A DNA stretch of 60,687 nucleotides from Chiloscyllium plagiosum (GCF_004010195.1 NC_057718.1:86605514-86666200); one strand, 5' to 3'. Shown: positions 2,665-59,856, numbered from the stretch's first letter. Made by a program: numbers and translations. The notes: generated by a model not told the origin, from the letters alone.

Positions 2665-5380
2665 CCTAAAATCTAATGGGGGGTAGTGAAGGGTGAGTAT
2701 TCTATCACACGCCTGGCTTGTGCCTTGTAGGTGGTGAACAGGATTCAGGGAGTCAGGAGATGAGTTACTCGCCACAGAAATCCTAAACTCTGACCTGCTT
2801 TTGCAGTCACTGTGTTTATATGTCGAGTCTTAAGTTTCTGGTCAAAGGTAACCCCCAGGATTATAATAGTGGGAGATTCTGTGATGGTAACACCAATGAA
2901 TGTCAAGGGAAAATGGGTAGATTGTCTCTTAGTGAGGATGGACGTTGCATAGCATTTGTATGGAATGAATGTTACTTGTCACTTATCAGCCCAAGCCTGG
3001 ACATTGACCAGGTCTTGTTGCATTTGAACATGGGCCATTTCAGTAGGAGTTGTGAATGGTGCTGAACATTGAGTGATCATTGGCAAACATCCCCACCCCT
3101 GACCTCAATGTGTCGGGAACATCACTGAAGCAACTGAAGATGATTGGGCCTCAGAGACTACGCTGAGGAACTCCTGCAGAGATGTTCTGGACATGGCATG
3201 ACTGACATCCAACAATCACAACAATCTTCCTATATGCCAGGTATGACTCCAAACAACAAAGAGTTTTCCCCCTAATACCTATTGATTCCAGTTTTGCTAT
3301 GGCACCTTGATGCCACACTTGGTCAAAAGCAGCCTTGATGTTAATGGCTCTCACCTCACCTCACGTCTGCAATTCAGCTTTTTTGTCCAAGTTTGAACAA
3401 AGGTTGTAAAGAGATCAGGAGCTGAGCAGCCCTGGCGGTACCCAAACTGGGTATCACTAAGCAGGTTATTGCTGAACTGATGCTGCTTGATAGCACTGTT
3501 GATGGCACCTTCCCACATTTTACTGATGAGTGAGGTTAGACTAATGGGGCAGTAATTGGCAGGGTTATATTTGTCCCACCTGCGCTGCTGCTAACACACA
3601 TACCTGGGCAACTTTCCACATTGTCAGGTAGATACCAGTGTTGTAGCCGAACTAAAACAGCTTGACTAGGGGTATGGCAAGTTCTGGAGCACAAGTCTTT
3701 GGGACTATTACTGGAATACTGTTAGAGTCTATAGCTTTTGCAGTAACCAGTACTTCCAATCATTTTTTGTGGAGTGAATGGAGTTGGCTGAAGATCAGTT
3801 TCTGTAACACTGGGGACCACTGGAGGAGACCAAGATGGATCATCCACTTGGCACTTCTTCTGAAGATTGAGGATGAGGGTATTTGTGCAGACTTGTCTTC
3901 CAGATAAGTTGCTTAATTGTCTGTCACTATTCACTACTTGATGTGGCGAGACTGCAGAAGTTATATCTAATTTTTTTATTCTGCAATCACTTAGCTTTAT
4001 CTATTACTTGATGTTTATGCCATTTGGCACACAAGTAATCCTGTTTGGTAGCACAACCAGGTCGTCATCTCATTTTTAGGTGTTTCTGGTACTGCTCCTG
4101 GCATGCCTTTCTGCATTCATCATTGAACCAGGGCTGATCCCCTGACTTGGTAGCAATAGTTGAGGGAGGAATATGCCATGTCATGAGATTGCAGATTACG
4201 GTGGAGTAGAATTCTGCTGCTGTTGATGGTCCATGGTGTCTCATGGTGTCCCTGTCTTTATTGCTAGATCTGTTCAAAGTCTTTCTAGGTTAACACAGTG
4301 AAAGTGCCACACAACACGATGGATGGTATTCTCAATATGAAGGTGCTATTTTGTCTCCACAAGGACTGTGCTTTTGTAACTTTTACTGAAACTGTCATGG
4401 ACAGATGCATTTGCAGCAGCCAAATTAGTGAAGATGAGACCAGTATGTTTTTTCCTTTTGTTGATTCCCTCATCAGCTGCTGCACACTAAGTCTAGCAGC
4501 TATGTCCTGTAGGGCTCAACCAGCTCAATCAGTAGTGCTGCAACTGAGCCATTCATCGTGGTGGACATTGAAACCCTCCATTCAGAGTACATTTTGCACC
4601 CTTGCCACCCTTAGTGTTATGCAACATGGAGGAGTACTGATTTATCAGCCGAAGGAGGACAGTACATGGTAACCGGCAGGAGGTTTCCTTGCCCATGTTT
4701 AACCTGAAGCCATGAGACATCATTGGATGCAGAGTCAGTGTTGTGGATTCCCAAGGCGACTCCCTACCGACTATATACCAATGTGCCACCAGTTCTGCGT
4801 GTCTGTCCTGCTGATGGCACAGGTCATATCCAGATATAACGGTGGTGGTGTCTGGGACATTGTCTAAGTATAAATTGTCAGGCTGTTGCTGGTAAGGCAG
4901 CTCTCCCAATTTTGGCATTGGCCTCCAGATGTTAGTCAGGAGAACTTTGCAGGGTAGACAGAATAGTTTTGCTGTTGTCATTTCCAGTGCCTAGGTCAAT
5001 GCCAGGTGGTCCATCCAGTTTTATTCTTTTGTTGAGATTTTGTCGTGATTGATACAACTGGGTGGCTTGCTTGGCCATTTCAAGGGCAGGGCAAAAGTGA
5101 GGACTGCAGATGTTAGAGATTAGAGTTGAGAGTGTGGTGCTGGAAAAGCACAGCAGGTCAGGCAGCATCCGAGGAGCAAGAAAATTTGACTTTTTGGGCA
5201 AAAGCTCTTCATCAGAGGGCAATTGTGAATCAACCACATTATTGTGAGTCTGGAGTCACATGTAAGCCAGACCAGGTGAGAATGGCAGATCTCCTTCCCT
5301 GAAGGGCATTAGTGAGCCAGATGGGTTTTTCTGACAATTGGCAATGGTTTCATTGTCATTATTAGGGACTTAGCTCCAGA
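2665..5380 (-). mobile_element. LINE remnant (CR1/L2 group): APE endonuclease plus RT, with SINE-like 5' leader
   Basis: Minus-strand fragments LTNIW..PKLGEL...NVPDTTTVISGYDLCHQQD (APE), KSGDQPWFNDECRKAC (linker), INIKAAFDQVWHQG..LESIGIRGKTL and AGVPQ (RT); many frameshifts. Confidence 0.8.
5089..5215 (-). mobile_element. Short PLE-derived element with degenerate hammerhead motif
   Basis: Minus strand begins CTGATGA-AGAGCTTTTGCCC-AAAA-AGTC; flanked by AGGGCA at 5083-5088 and 5216-5221; homologous to 41227, 46470, 49160 and 59221 copies. Confidence 0.75.
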
Positions 5381-7277
5381 CACCCTGTGACAGGATACAC
5401 ATATGCCACCCTAGTGGCTTTAGAACATCAGTGAATTATAAACACAAAAGGACTAGAAATTGAGTTTGAAAAATCTTTGTGTTTTCTCTGTAGTTAAAGT
5501 ATTCTTGAGTTAATTTGAAGTTTGTTCCAGGTATCTCAGGGAGAGATTCCAGCTGGAGATACAAAGCATTGATGGAATTGTACAGGAAACTGGCGTAGCT
5601 GCTAAATACCAGGTGTGAGGCCTTCAGGTCAGGAGACCAATTCAAATCTAAGGAACCCAAGTATGACCTCCGCAGAGACATTAAGACAACCAAGGACCAA
5701 TACTGATCCAAACTAAAGACCCAGACAGAAACCCGGCGATTATGGCAAGGACTGAATGACATCACAGGTTCTAGAAAGAGACAGTGCAAGATAGCAAGCA
5801 AAGACACATCCCTCCCAGATTGTCTCAATGCCTTCTATGCTTGCTTTGAGCAGAACTTCGATGGAGAGGTAACACCTATTCTGACATGTCCTGACGAACC
5901 TATCCCAACAGTCACTGCATCAGAGGTCAGATCAGTTTTCCTTCGTGTGAGCCCAAGGAAAGCGATGGAACCAGATGGAGTACCAGGCCGTGCACTGAGA
6001 GCATGCACACATCAATTAGCAGAGGTCTTCACAGATATCTTCAACCTCTCCCTGCAGTAGGCCACTGTCTCAGCCTGTTTCAAGAGGGCCAACATCATCC
6101 CTGTGCCTAAGAAGGCTCATGCAGCATGTCTCAATGACTACCGCCCAATGGCCCTAACTTCGGTTGTCATGCAGTGCTTTGAAAGGCTGATCATGGCATA
6201 AATCAACTCCAGCCTCCCCACTACTCTTGACCCACTCCAATTTGCCAATCGGACCAACAGATCCACGTCAGATGCCATACCACTTGCCTTTCACTTCTCC
6301 CTAGAACAACTTGACACCAAAACAGCTACATAAGAATCCTACTCATTGACTACAGTTCAGCCTTCAACACTATTATCCCCTTGAGACTTATTACTAAACT
6401 TAATGATCTTGGACTAAGCCCCACTCTCTGCAACTGGATCCTCCGTTTCCTGACCCACAGGCCACAATCAGTGAAGACTGGGGACAATATTTCATCCTCA
6501 CAAACACTCAACACTGGACCCCCTTCCAGGATACATACTCAGCCCCCTACTGTACTCGTTAAATGCCCATGACTGCGTCGCCGGATACCAGACTAATGCC
6601 ATTTACAAGTTTGCTGATGACACCACCATAGTCAATCGAATCTCAGATGGTGACAAAACAGACTACAGACAGGAGATAGAAGACCTCGAACAGCCTATCT
6701 CTCAATGCTGGCAAAACCAAGGAACGCATTATTGACTTTTGGCTAGATGTTACTCATGCCCCCCTACGCATTAACTGCACAGAGGTGGAACGAGTGGAGA
6801 GTGTCAAGCTCCTGGGAGTGGTTATCCACAACAAACTTTCCTGGACTCTTCATGTGGATGCACTGGTTACAAAGGCCCAACAACGTCTGTTCTTTCTCGG
6901 GCAGCTCAGAAAATTTGACATGACGGCAAATATCCTTGCCAACTTTTATAGGTACGCCATCGAGAGCATTTTGTCTGGATGTATCATTACCTGGTATGGC
7001 AACTGTACCATTCAAGATTGGACATGGTTACAGGGAGTGGTGAACTCGACCCGGCCAATCTCAAAGGCCAACCTTCCATCTATAGAATCCATCTACCAGG
7101 CCAGCTGTCAAGGAAAGGCTGCCAGCATTCTCAAAGATCCATCCCACCCTGACAATGTTTTACAACAACCTTTACCACTGGGGAGAAGATACAGAAGCCT
7201 GAACACCCGCACTAACCGGTTTTGAAACAGTTTCTACCATAGCCAGTTTGGTTTGCTCGCTGAGCTGGAAGGTTCTT

Positions 7278-7319
7278 TCCAGACGTTTCATCACCCTACT
7301 AGGTAACATCTTCAGTGGA
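7278..7319 (-). ncRNA. Minimal type I hammerhead ribozyme motif
   Basis: Minus strand reads TCCA-CTGAAGA-T-GTTACCT-AGTA-GGGTGAT-GAAA-C-GTC-TGGA: stem I TCCA/TGGA, core CUGANGA and GAAA, stem II with wobbles, GUC cleavage triplet. Confidence 0.75.
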
Positions 7320-8176
7320 CCTCCAGGCAAAATACTGCTGATAATTCCTGCTTTCTATTTATATGTTTGGTTTCTTTGGGTTAGTGATGTCATTTCCTGT
7401 GATGCTGTCATTTCCTGTTTTATTCAATCTCAGGGGGTAGTAGATGGGGTCTAACTCGATGTGTTTGTTGGTAGAGTCCCGGTTAGAATGCCATGCTTCT
7501 AGGAATTCTTGTGCATGTCTCTGTTTGGCTTGTCCTAGGATGGATGTGTTGTCCCAGTCAAAGTGGTGTCTTTCCTTACTTGTATGTAAGGATACTAGTG
7601 AGAGAGGGTCATGTCGTTTTGTGGCTAGTTGATGTTCATGTATCGTAATGGCTAGTTTTCTGCCTGTTTGTCCAATGTAGTGTTTGTTACAGTTCTTGCA
7701 TGGTATTTTGTAAATGACATTAGTTTTGCTTGCAAAACTTGCAAAACAAGCAAAACTAATGTCATTTACAAAATACCATGCAAGAACTGTAATAAACACT
7801 ACATTGGACAAACAGGCAGAAAACTAGCCATCAGGATACATGAACATCAACTAGCCACAAAACAACGTGACCCTCTCTCACTAGCATCCTTACATACAGA
7901 TAAGGAAGGACATCATTTTGACTGGGACAACACATCCATCCTAGGACAAGCCAAATAGAGACACGCACGAGAATTCTTAGAAGCATGGCATTCCAACCGG
8001 AACTCTACCAATAGACACATCGAGTTAGACCCCATTTATTACCCCCTGAGAGAGAAAAAAAGGAAATGACATTACCACAGGAAATGACAGCACCACAGGA
8101 AATGACATCACCAACCCAAAGAAACCCAAACATATAAATAGAAAGCAGGAATTATTAGCAGTGCTTCACCCGGAGG

Positions 8177-8218
8177 CCCACTGAAGATGTTACCAAGAAG
8201 GGCGATGAAACATCCGGA
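8177..8218 (+). ncRNA. Minimal hammerhead ribozyme motif, decayed partner copy
   Basis: CCCA-CTGAAGA-TGTTACCAAGAAGGGCGAT-GAAA-CATC-CGGA; core boxes intact, stems mutated. Confidence 0.6.
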
Positions 8219-9949
8219 AAGAACCTTCCAGCTCAACGAGCAAACCTACATCCAGAGTTTCTACCCTACTCACAAATAGAATGGACTCACAAACTCTTAG
8301 CATTCGCCTGTACCAGTGTGTTTGTTTTTGCTGGTGTTTACCTATTATTTGCTTATCTATGCTATTTAACTATGTGATCTGCCTGTATTGCTCGCAAGAC
8401 AATGCTTTTCACTGTGCCTCGACACACGTGACAATAAATTAAATTCTAAGTTCTAATTCTAAATTCTAGCTGTGTCAGCTTGAGAAAGGCGCTTTATTGT
8501 GGAGATAGTAGTGAATCTTCCCTGAGGTTAGGGTGTTTGAAAGGATATTATTGGTGAAAAATCCTTTTCTGCAGCTTGTAATAAAATCTTTCCAACATGT
8601 TTGTCTAATGTATTAGTGTTTAAATTTTTCTTTTTAATAGACATTTCATTATTTGTGAAAAGAGTTCACTAGCAGATTCTTGTGAATGTATTCAGAGACA
8701 ATCTTGTACAGTTAGAAAGAACCATGTTAGGATCTAAAATCCCAAGTTCAGACTTGCCCAATACTAACCATGGGGATCATAACAGCCTGAACCTGTAAAG
8801 GTAAATAAGGCCTCAATTTAATCTCCCATAAAGTAATGATATTGTATTATGTGATGAAATACTCTGTTTGATTCCAATTTTGCACTAGGATAGCCATCAA
8901 TCTATGACTGATAATATTAAAGGAGTTGAGTGGCGACAAATGGAATGAATTTGGTTGATAATTAGGACAGTTTGGAGGGTCAGTGAAGAGGGGTTTTTAA
9001 AGAATACAGACAATGGGAGAAACAGCCAGAGAGAAATAAAGGTAGATTCTATGTTACCTAGTTGTTATGCCGCTGGCAGCTAGCTGAACTACACAAGTTC
9101 CACGTTAGGTACTCAGTGAGGCGTCAAGAGCAGCTGCATGGTTCTGTGCTGTTAGAACGCAGGAGGCAGGTCTAGGAATTATTAGACAGCTGTGTGTTGG
9201 AGTCAGGATGCAGTAGTAGTCCTGGGGAGCTGAGAAAGTGGGAAGATCACTGGCTCTGTGTTGAGGGATACCATGAGAGGCTCAGAAGAAGTCTGTAAGC
9301 ATTAATATTTTAGTGCAGATGGGAGAATAGGTGTTGAAAGTATAAAAGTAGTATTTGTTTGATGCACCTGAACAAGACTGGGGAAGCTCAATGAAAAATC
9401 CATGGGCAGGACAGACTCAGTCAGGCTCAGTGACGAACTGGAATCAAGCTTGTGAATGAGTACTGGAAAATAGTTTTGGAGTCCAGGGATATATAGTTCC
9501 GGAAAAGTGGGTAATTATCTAGAACGGCTGCAGTCAATAATGCAGTTTGTGACAAAATGATTCTTGAAAAGAAATTCCAAGGCAGAGTTGGCAAAAGTAA
9601 AGGATTACAATCCCTCTGCCTGCACCCCCCTCCCCATAGACCCACAGAGGGCTACAGCACAGAAAAAGGCCCCTTTGTCCATTCAGTTTGCGCCAGTCAA
9701 GTATTAGCACCTATAACCAACTTGTGAAGTCTAATGAGATTTGATGACCCAATATTTCATCAATATCTTTAAGTATTGCTGAGAAATCCATGAGATCCAG
9801 AATGAAAACTGAAAACACAAGAGAAACACAACTGTTCTGCCATTTCTGTGGAGAAAGCAAGAGAGTTAACGTTTTGAGCACAGATTGACTCTTTCTAAAC
9901 TTTTGCTGAGTTCCTGCAGCATTTTGCTTTTATTAATCCATATGATCAA

Positions 9950-29770: not shown

Positions 29771-30074
29771 GAGCATTCTCAAAGATCCATCCCACCCTGG
29801 CAATGATTTTCTACAACCTCTACCATCGGGGAGAAGGTACAGAAGCCTGAACACATGCACCAGCCGGTTTTGAAACAGTTTCTACCCTACTGTTGTTAGA
29901 ATACTGAATTGACTCTTAACATTCGCCTGTACCTGTGTTTTTATTTTTGCCACTGTTTACCTATTATTTACTATCTATGCTACTTAACTCTGTGATCTGC
30001 CAGTATTGCTTGCAAAACAAAGCTTTTCACTGTGCCTCGGTACACGTGACAATAAATATATTCAATTCAATTCA
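29771..30074 (+). mobile_element. Rex1/Babar-like LINE 3' end
   Basis: SILKDPSHPGNDFLQPLPSGRRYRSLNTCTSRF matches 7124-7225; (ATTCA)n tail; shows the uninterrupted form of the site hit by the PLE at 7239. Confidence 0.85.
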
Positions 30075-32986: not shown

Positions 32987-33808
<822 letters not shown>

Positions 33809-41127: not shown

Positions 41128-41679
41128 TAGATCACAGAATCTCTACAGCGTGGAAACAGGCTATTCAGATCATGCCAACCCTCTGAAGAGAATGCCATTC
41201 AATACTTACACCCCTACTCCATCCCTAGGAGAAAATGACGACTGGAGATGCTGCAGATCAGAGTCGAAGAGTGCAGTGCTGGAAAAGCACAGCCAGTCAG
41301 GTAGCATCCGAGGAGCAGGAGAATTGATGTTTCGGGCATAAGCCTCATTCCTGATGAAGGGCTTATGCCCGAAGCGTCGATTTGCCTGCTCCTTGGATGT
41401 TGCCTGACTGGCTGTGCTTTTCCAGTGCCACACTCTTTGACCCCTACCCTATCCCTGAATTTCCATGGCTAATCCACTAAGCTACACATCCCTGGTCACT
41501 ACGCAGTATGGCCAATTCACCTAATCGGCACATCTTAGGACTGTGGGAGGAAACCTGAAGGAAACCCACGCAGACACAGGGAGAATGTGCAAACTCCACA
41601 CAGACAGTCACCTGAGTCTGGAATTGAACTTGGGTTCTTGGTGTTGTGAGGCAGCAGTGCTAACCACAGAGCCACCATG
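41128..41679 (-). mobile_element. HE1-type V-SINE interrupted by a PLE mini-palindrome
   Basis: Reverse-complement head and V-domain at 41540-41679, tail at 41128-41226. Confidence 0.8.
41227..41440. mobile_element. Fold-back PLE pLTR mini-element with hammerhead motif
   Basis: Arms 41263-41344 and 41359-41441 are reverse complements; CTGATGA-AGGGCTTATGCCC-GAAG-CGTC at 41351-41378; 16-bp flanking repeat with 2 mismatches (41211-41226, 41441-41456). Confidence 0.85.
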
Positions 41680-46089: not shown

Positions 46090-46562
46090 ATTCAACTCCC
46101 CCTCACACTCCCCCAAGGACATGCAAAACCTGGGCCTCTTCCACTGCCAAATCAAAGTCACCATCAACTGGAGGGAGAACGCCTCATCTTCCACCTCAGG
46201 ACCCTACAACCCCACGGCATCAACATTGACTTCACCAGTTTCCAAATCTCTCCTCCCCCCACCTCATCCCAGATTCATCCCTCCAACTTGGCATTGCCCT
46301 CATGACCTGTCCTACCTATCCATCTTCCTTCCACCTATCCACTCCACCCTCCCCACCGACCTATCACAATTAGCTCCCACCTGCATCCTCCTATCATCAT
46401 CCCATCTACCTTTCCCCCAGCCCCACCCCATACCCCTATTTATCTCTCAGCCCCCTTCCCCCTCCACATTCCTGGTGAAGGGCTTATGCGTGCAGCGTCG
46501 ACTCCCCTGCTCCTCTGATGCTGCCTGACCTGCTGTGCTATCCACCTCCACACTTTTTGACT
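46090..46562 (+). mobile_element. PLE 3' end (endonuclease C-terminus plus pLTR, decayed hammerhead)
   Basis: FNSPSHSPKDMQNLGLFHCQ and RLIFHLRTLQPHGINIDFTSF remnants; CTGGTGA-AGGGCTTATGCGT-GCAG-CGTC near 46472-46500. Confidence 0.8.
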
Positions 46563-47869: not shown

Positions 47870-48425
47870 GTAAACATACAGGAGGCTGGAAGAACACAGC
47901 AAGGCAAGCAGCATCAAAAGGTGGAGAAGTTGATGTTTCGGATGTAACCCTTCTTCAGGACTGGGGGTGGGTGTAAGGAGAGCAGATAAAGGGAGTGGAG
48001 AGGGCAGAGTGCTGAGGTAGGGACAGGTGGAGACAGGTAGAGGGTACAACCTGGTTGGTGGATGGGCGGAATGAATCCGGTATGTGACTGAGAGGAATGG
48101 AAGGGAGAGGAAGGGGCTGGGGAGGGAGTGGGGGGAAGGGAAGGAAAGGGAGGTTATTTGAAATTCGAGAACTCAATGTTGAGTCCTCCAGACTATAAGC
48201 TGCCCAGCGAAATGGAAGGTGTTGTTCCTCCGATTTGCAGTTTGGTTTGTTGTGGCAATGGAGGAGGCCAAGGGAGGGCATGTCGGAGAGGGATTGGGAT
48301 GGGGAATTAAACTGACCAGTGACTGGGAGGTCCGGTCAGCCCCTGCGGGCCCGGTTGTGATGTTTGGCAAAACATTCCTTTAGTTTACATTTGGTGTTCC
48401 TGATGTGGTCTTCTCTACATTGGGA
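47870..48425 (-). mobile_element. PLE 3' end with hammerhead core
   Basis: LGLLHCHNKPNCKSEEQHLPFR endonuclease C-terminus; minus strand AGTC-CTGAAGA-AGGGTTACATCC-GAAA-CATC-AACT near 47929-47962. Confidence 0.8.
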
Positions 48426-49160: not shown

Positions 49161-49524
49161 AGGCAGAAGTGGGCACTGCAAATGTTGAAGATTAGAGTCA
49201 AGATTAGAGAGGTGCTGGAAAACCACAGCAGGTCAGGCAGCATCCGAGGAGCAGGGAAATTGATGTTTCAGGCAAAAGCTCTTCGTCAGGAATGAGGCTG
49301 GGAGCCTCGGGGGTGGAGTTGGGAGAAGGTAGCTGAGATTGCAATAGGTGGATGGAGGAAGGGGTAAAGGTGATAGGTCGGAGAGGAGGGTAGAGCAGAT
49401 AGGTGGGACAGGTCATGAGGATGGTGCTGAGCCAGAAGGTTGGAACTGGGGTAATGTGGGGGGAGGGGAAATGAGGAAACTGGTGAAGTCCACATTGATG
49501 CCACGGGGTTGAAGGGTCTCGAGG
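49161..49524 (-). mobile_element. PLE 3' end/pLTR with hammerhead core, nested in a CR1 tail (48940-49160)
   Basis: Minus strand ATTC-CTGACGA-AGAGCTTTTGCCT-GAAA-CATC-AATT at 49258-49293; homologous to 46200-46560. Confidence 0.8.
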
Positions 49525-59220: not shown

Positions 59221-59427
59221 GGAGAAAGTGAGGACTGCAAATGCTGGAGATCAGTCAAAAAGTGTGGTGCTGGAAAAGCACAGCCGGTCAGGCAACATCT
59301 GAGGAGCAGGAGAGTTGACGTTTCGGGCATAAATTTCACGATGAGGAGCTTATGCTCAAGACATCGACTCTTCTTCTCCTCGGATGCTGCCTGACCGGCT
59401 GTGCCTATCCAACACCACACTTTTTGT
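59221..59427. mobile_element. Fold-back PLE pLTR mini-element
   Basis: Arms about 59256-59332 and 59350-59426 are reverse complements; 15-bp flanking repeat CTC(T/A)GTATTTGGTAT at 59206-59220 and 59428-59442. Confidence 0.85.
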
Positions 59428-59856
59428 CTCAGTATTTGGTATACCGAGTGTCTCTTGTGTTTCTGCCAATCGCTGTGCTAGTACACCAATTATCTCTGCC
59501 TTCCTGGCTTTTGGGGAGCTTCTACCTTTATCTGTTTTACCAATTCTATCAGCTTAACCCGAATTTTATCCTGTAAACCTGTCAGGGATAAGAAACATGT
59601 TGTGATAAGAAACTTCCAGTGCCATCTCAATAAAAAAACATGAGAAACCTGTTATTTATCCCTTTATCCTTTACTAATCATGATTATTTCACATCCAATC
59701 TCATGTTGTCTGCATACAATGATCCTACATTGAGCATCATTGCTCCAAGCTCCAGCAGTCTATGAGCTGTGCCTGAGGTGTAAAAGTTGTACTTAATCAG
59801 CAAAATGGTCAATTTGTTTCTCTTTATTGCTGTTTACTTCGAGCAAGGGGGGCTTT

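Follow-up and report, generated by a model that had tools for sequence, protein, structure and literature searches.

Inverted copies are a described feature of Penelope-like elements (PLEs). Arkhipova et al. (2013; PMC3846280) described, in Adineta vaga, insertions bounded by inverted pLTRs, with head-to-head inverted copies, one 8-10-bp duplication around the unit and palindromes at the inverted junction, and self-priming on the antisense strand was proposed for PLEs. An inverted truncated copy often lies at the 5' end of EN+ PLE insertions according to Craig et al. (2021; PMC8557442), where the formation of tandem and inverted insertions is called unresolved, and inverted pLTRs are recorded elsewhere as a known peculiarity (PMC8969392). 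Cervera and De la Pena (2014; PMC4209133) described PLE hammerheads paired on opposite strands about 100-700 bp apart, with an extra nucleotide between 9 and 10.1, a long helix II, a short helix I and a palindromic 15.2-16.2; as single motifs, these minimal hammerheads did not cleave in vitro. For the Anolis Poseidon element (Frangieh et al. 2024; PMC11167929), the purified protein started over a spread of sites, two end classes were tied to the starts of reverse transcription, and the hammerhead needed protein and was dispensable for insertion. In R2 insertions, the 3' end of the cDNA snaps back and primes on itself before the upstream flank is joined (PMC11204384). Snap-back has also been described for bacterial reverse transcriptases, with polymerase theta mentioned (10.1101/2022.03.14.484287), and L1 foldback in chromosome rearrangements is loosely relevant (10.1101/2024.12.14.628481). 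A term search of the accessible text of a retrozyme preprint (10.64898/2026.07.22.740005) returned nothing on inverted copies, and a literature search of main texts, few of them from subscription journals, returned no published account of symmetric truncation or snap-back in PLEs.

The locus described here lies in a 60,687-nt stretch of Chiloscyllium plagiosum DNA, the whole of which was analysed and is called the window. An earlier note, made from this DNA alone, had proposed that it contains a 1-kb palindrome of inverted Penelope arms. Alignment bore this out: an inverted repeat at 7250-8246 is formed by a minus-strand arm and a plus-strand arm placed 5'-to-5', and 7250-7732 (minus) and 7747-8246 (plus), when aligned globally, are 91.9% identical, with 444 matches, 39 substitutions and 17 gap columns. 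Thirty-three of the substitutions are transitions, and 10 of the 39 are compatible with CpG decay. Two indels separate the arms, and an 18-bp tandem unit that follows the endonuclease is present three times in the right arm (8060-8113) and twice in the left (7383-7418). No further copies of the arms were found in the window. The features of the locus, with the paralogous site, are as follows.

5707..7238 (start approximate), plus strand: host LINE upstream of the insertion, a decayed RT-coding 3' part preserved as ORF pieces
7229..7238, plus strand: left target-site duplication, 10 bp, AGTTTCTACC
7239..7249, no strand: filler, 11 nt, containing a 6-nt target repeat, CAGTTT
7250..7732, minus strand: left arm, a 5'-truncated PLE 3' fragment whose endonuclease frame is open for 124 codons (7359-7733)
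7277..7320, minus strand: left minimal hammerhead, core intact, presumed cut after 7282
7733..7744 (to 7746 with two A's assigned to the insert), no strand: central spacer, opening with the reverse complement of 7722-7728
7745..8255, plus strand: right arm, the same PLE 3' fragment, with a stop codon at 7956-7958, ending at the family's tail-less end
8176..8219, plus strand: right minimal hammerhead, degenerate, core boxes present and helices broken, presumed cut 8214
8256..8265, plus strand: right target-site duplication, AGTTTCTACC, its first A also being the element's next native base
8266..8445, plus strand: 3' end of the host LINE beyond the insertion, 88% identical to 29912-30057
29877..29886, plus strand: empty target site in the paralogous LINE, AGTTTCTACC

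Like the A. vaga PLEs (PMC3846280), the shark locus has head-to-head copies, a palindromic junction and one duplication around the unit. Unlike them, as far as the accessible text of that paper goes, it has no longer main copy, both arms being about 0.5 kb with breaks 0-2 nt apart, neither arm has a tail, and the centre holds a templated spacer. It shares with the EN+ PLE architecture an inverted 5'-truncated copy and one flanking duplication, but it lacks the partial tandem of the elements in PMC8557442, and the accessible part of that work draws no special attention to near-perfect symmetry. In L1-type twin priming, the inverted part derives from another stretch of the RNA than the rest. That arrangement was not found here, where both arms span the same segment.

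The left-arm frame encodes 124 codons of a GIY-YIG-type endonuclease with a CxxC between the motifs (VIYKIPCKNCNKHYIG); two cysteines between GIY and YIG, the mark of EN+ PLEs, are thus present. Both arms begin about four codons ahead of VIY...YIG, confirming the truncation just before GIY-YIG that had been claimed. The Pfam GIY-YIG model gave no match on the fragment itself and matched the best homolog below the cut-off. A search of longer proteins yielded 37 homologs among 234 candidates, the best 80% identical over 98% of the query and the closest from the carpet sharks Stegostoma, Chiloscyllium, Hemiscyllium and Rhincodon. Together, these homologs and the cysteine pair upheld the proposed Penelope-like identity. 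The reverse transcriptase is cut off in the window copy and is present upstream in close homologs, for example P0006, P0009 and P0016. An extra Cys-rich finger in the linker between reverse transcriptase and endonuclease marks Neptune and Nematis (PMC8557442). The linker, absent from the window copy, has no such finger in the nearest homologs (columns 601-667), which points to the Penelope/Poseidon clade as far as the homologs can speak for this copy. Pattern scans for related loci found none in prokaryote genomes; in metagenomes, the protein pattern gave 94 matches with none confirmed and a 27-nt pattern gave none. Five shark gene models (P0005, P0015, P0031, P0036 and P0037), named as MAP3K7, CUEDC2, WBP2-like, EYA3-like and ZSWIM7 isoforms, contain the Penelope endonuclease segment, which reflects either exonisation or annotation error.

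For a view of the family, contigs of four of 24 runs (X1, X5, X7 and X9) were aligned at 80% likeness to 7700-8700, a stretch that takes in the centre and the right junction and leaves out the left outer junction. The tables for these runs list 40 letter rows out of 162, 15 joints out of 277 and 24 loose ends out of 3581. The depth values add up contigs and do not count copies. Between 33,095 and 38,604 contigs aligned per run, indicating that the family is very abundant in these runs. Over the unique right flank, X1 showed no differences in 309 bases and X5 showed two, whereas 15 were seen in each of X7 (297 bases) and X9 (258 bases). These results indicated that X1 and X5 are from the species of the window and that X7 and X9 are from relatives.

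The host of the insertion is a LINE, which we take to be Rex1/Babar-like; RVT_1 matched it below the cut-off (E 0.019), and its part upstream of the insertion is 89% identical to the paralog at 29772-29889. The 10-bp sequence AGTTTCTACC occurs exactly three times in the window (7229, 8256 and 29877), and the chance of such a match with 5 nt of slack on each side was roughly estimated at 1e-4. The two statements of the earlier note on the target, that one perfect 10-bp duplication surrounds the whole structure and that a LINE copy near 29.8 kb retains the empty site, were both confirmed, since the duplication is exact and the paralog reads through with no insertion. No duplication lies between the arms, which supports the claim of a single event. 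We hold it very probable that the element is Penelope-like and that it arrived in one insertion. To the right of the duplication, the host LINE at 8271-8290 carries a block change and small indels relative to the paralog and the family, which may be damage done by the insertion or may have arisen separately.

Variants common to both arms bear on their source. Among the sites listed, the right arm differs from the family majority at 19, of which 15 are private and four (7831, 8008, 8040 and 8090, none CpG) are common to both arms; at these four, the non-majority letters make up 1-10% of family depth. Four rare shared variants indicate that both arms came from one template or one source locus. 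The shared site 8040 adjoins the private site 8039, which speaks against a conversion tract. Differences between the arms are sparse near the centre, with none in the first 46 bp and one in 85 bp (post hoc P 0.017 and 0.004; 0.05 and 0.023 with CpG-compatible sites removed). Conversion of one arm by the other in this central part was considered and rejected, since just one shared derived site lies there.

Among the loose ends listed, native upstream family sequence precedes 7745 in all four runs, so that the break of the right arm falls at 7745 and that of the left arm at the equivalent of 7747. The offset is 0-2 nt, depending on whether two A's belong to the insert, so the arms are cut at nearly the same point, as had been proposed, but not at a strictly identical one. 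Their 5'-to-5' orientation also stood, but the join is not flush: a spacer of 12-14 nt lies between them. The spacer begins with CAAAACT; paired with its reverse complement at 7722-7728, this heptamer forms a DNA hairpin with a stem of 7 bp and the loop CTTG (-4.1 kcal/mol). GCAAAAC stands at 7732, 7741 and 7750, and AAC overlaps at 7745-7747. Judged by these repeats, the spacer was templated by the end of the arm itself, and a snap-back step at the centre is probable. The spacer parses equally well from the top or the bottom strand and therefore does not tell which cDNA folded; the cleanest hairpin sits on the cDNA strand of the left arm, not the right.

Depth over 7737-7739 in the four runs was 9.66, 0, 31.6 and 0, with contigs covering the centre in two of the four, whereas depth over the arms was 1e5-1e6. 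A centre of single-copy or zero depth beside amplified arms indicates that it was built at the insertion site. X7, from a second species, shows the letters of the window over 7737-7739, which hints weakly at an insertion older than the species split. Such an age fits a drift of about 4% per arm since insertion against some 2.5-3% per lineage in the flank. A single X1 contig, from the same species as the window, has three other letters at 7737-7739, and it stems either from an allele whose loop has changed or from a different locus whose centre is similar.

The two outer ends are unequal. The right arm terminates at 8255 with one base in common with the duplication. Among the loose ends listed, the family tail follows 8256 in all four runs and heterogeneous ends pile up at 8254 in X1. 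Like Anolis Poseidon (PMC11167929), the shark family thus shows two end classes, with and without a tail; unlike it, the shark target is not ATT-rich, and inverted products are not treated in the accessible text of that paper. Neither arm carries the 30-40-nt tail that is optional in PLEs, though the family has it after 8256. The left arm is 9 nt shorter at its outer end, which is followed by the 11 nt of filler before the duplication, and its position is not among the end pile-ups listed (24 of 3581 loose ends). The outer junctions are bridged by no contig among those listed. A template switch to 7821-7831 (9 of 11 matching) was tried as the source of the filler and rejected, since 17 places in the window, the filler itself included, match it at two or fewer mismatches.

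The explanation we favour is one insertion in which the whole second arm is a fold-back copy of the cDNA, and we give it an even chance of being correct. The endonuclease of the element would have cut both LINE strands 10 bp apart, as the duplication suggests. Reverse transcription would have been primed at the right-hand nick, at the family's usual tail-less start, and would have stopped after about 510 nt. The 3' end of the cDNA would then have folded back on its own last bases, leaving two short abortive copies as the spacer, probably in that order of steps, and the folded cDNA would have copied itself back almost to the start. The left end would finally have been joined to the flank with the loss of 9 nt and the addition of 11 nt of filler, presumably by end-joining. 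The unequal outer ends are the main reason for preferring one primed cDNA followed by fold-back. Self-priming of a cDNA end would be akin to R2 5' junctions (PMC11204384), yet R2 is another class of element, and at the shark locus the inverted part would be the whole cDNA. Against the fold-back, the spacer can be read from either strand with its cleanest hairpin on the cDNA of the left arm, the AAC overlap at 7745-7747 fits two joined cDNA ends, and a pair of RNAs transcribed from a single source locus would share the same variants as well. Given the spread of start sites in the accessible part of PMC11167929, the shorter left end could still have been primed, and, with 24 of 3581 loose ends listed, a pile-up at its position may yet exist.

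The strongest rival is dual priming, which we regard as rather less than even in probability and still a serious contender. An enzyme dimer would prime one cDNA on each cut strand, from two RNAs or repeat units of one locus; one cDNA end would snap back by a few bases, its sense-strand tail would find the homologous position on the other cDNA and anneal there, the flap would be trimmed and the gaps filled, and symmetry would follow automatically. In the accessible text of PMC11167929, the PLE protein cuts and extends both strands in vitro and is predicted to form a dimer, and such priming of both strands could yield outward-facing arms. The spacer also fits, being made of short templated copies whose last 3 nt overlap the start of the right arm, and fold-backs with a tail on one side are frequent in the literature (PMC8557442, accessible part) and occur in the window. 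What counts against dual priming is the left end, which is short, followed by filler and missing from the pile-ups listed, together with the need for both templates to carry the same four rare variants. The earlier note had read identical truncation as a sign of snap-back or dual priming. Both routes stay candidates, but equal truncation cannot choose between them, because a short snap-back tail would anneal to a second cDNA only at the homologous position. We tentatively suggest a rule, itself rather less likely than even, by which snap-back seals inverted Penelope copies, the tail running through the whole cDNA or annealing homologously to a second one.

The remaining explanations fare worse. 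It is improbable that an asymmetric insertion of the usual pattern, a long main copy with a short inverted one, later lost its unpaired middle by hairpin processing and end-joining. A templated spacer fits a repair event, and asymmetric opposite-strand family joints occur in X9 (7752-7805 and 7771-8080, among the joints listed, given without direction), but the letters of X7 over 7737-7739 would make such a loss old, and later deletions mostly break palindromes and do not perfect them. Copying of the palindrome whole from a palindromic donor, or from a multi-copy, MITE-like fold-back element, is very improbable: inverted ends with a duplication do resemble such elements, yet the centre is single-copy or zero in depth in all four runs and the window has no second copy. 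The 8% divergence of the arms, taken alone, would allow successive insertions, with one element landing at the 5' end of an earlier one, but an inner duplication is absent, the breaks are 0-2 nt apart, four rare variants are common to the arms and each arm has private changes, so that this course of events is highly improbable. An assembly fold-back artefact is the least credible of all, for although no contig listed spans the whole stretch or an outer junction, the arms differ by 39 substitutions and two indels, the duplication is exact with an empty paralog, and contigs cover the centre in two of four runs.

The earlier note had placed hammerhead cores at the ends of both arms and pictured a long double-stranded hairpin with potentially self-cleaving ends. 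The cores are present, but they lie inside the ends, with the presumed cut sites 32 and 41 nt in, and the left alone keeps its helices. Both arms have CUGAAGA, an extra U at 9/10.1, a long helix II and GAAA, and in both the G10.1-C11.1 pair is missing (G-U), where the family consensus from loose ends has C. The left hammerhead has a helix I of 4 bp, a helix II of 7 bp (three G-U, including 10.1-11.1) and a palindromic 15.2-16.2 (CG), and it was the one motif in the window to pass the helix I filter. In the right hammerhead, helix I begins with an A-C mismatch, two pairs of helix II are broken and 15.2-16.2 is C-A; the changes of this motif at 8195, 8198, 8203 and 8215 are private relative to the family majority. 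The minimal PLE feature set is therefore found in the left arm and not in the right. Compared with the accessible description in PMC4209133, the extra nucleotide, long helix II, short helix I and (on the left) 15.2-16.2 palindrome agree, whereas in the shark 866 bp separate the cores, both arms have G-U at 10.1-11.1 and the right motif is broken.

The Rfam hammerhead model gave no match at the gathering score or at E up to 10, and no Rfam model matched anywhere in the window at the gathering score. Between 7200 and 8300, 45 Rfam matches with E up to 10 fell short of the gathering score; most were microRNA models on the hairpin, and all were rejected as reflecting shape only. Free folding of 71-nt pieces gave no hammerhead fold (z -1.47 and 0.63). 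The long hairpin itself is predicted, since the 1037-nt RNA folds into one with 448 and 456 pairs. A transcript of either strand carries one sense hammerhead, at its 3' end, and the predicted fold pairs 38 of its 44 bases (plus) or 42 of 44 (minus) into the long stem. With a buried single sense motif and a broken right one, the predicted folds leave the ribozyme claim weak and self-cleaving ends unsupported. The hammerheads are passengers of the end of the element, with no present function indicated.

Other features of the window were also recorded. Two fold-backs of about 212 bp (41227-41439 and 59221-59431) belong to another family. They have duplication-like flanks (15/17 and 14/15), extend on one side by 40 and 32 nt, respectively, and contain a decayed hammerhead-like centre; relatives with a single arm lie near 5090-5215, 46464-46562 and 49162-49299. 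A third hammerhead-like core occurs at 47958 (minus strand) in an unrelated repeat. The palindrome lies about 25 kb upstream of a large coding exon (33071-33808, plus strand) with an ANF_receptor domain (E 9e-40), presumably of a metabotropic glutamate receptor.

The insertion is a dead, old and decayed copy of Penelope/Poseidon type in a known arrangement, and not a new system. The architecture has already been described, and the near-symmetric centre with its fold-back scar is the sole point of mechanistic interest, so that as a single locus, a decayed fragment, it matters little. If such palindromes were transcribed, their hairpins could be a large source of double-stranded RNA. With its exact duplication, empty site, readable centre and unequal outer ends, the locus is a clean fossil for the study of how PLE inversions form. 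If the suggested snap-back rule were true, both routes would force near-symmetric palindromes with templated centres, and this locus would preserve the scar.
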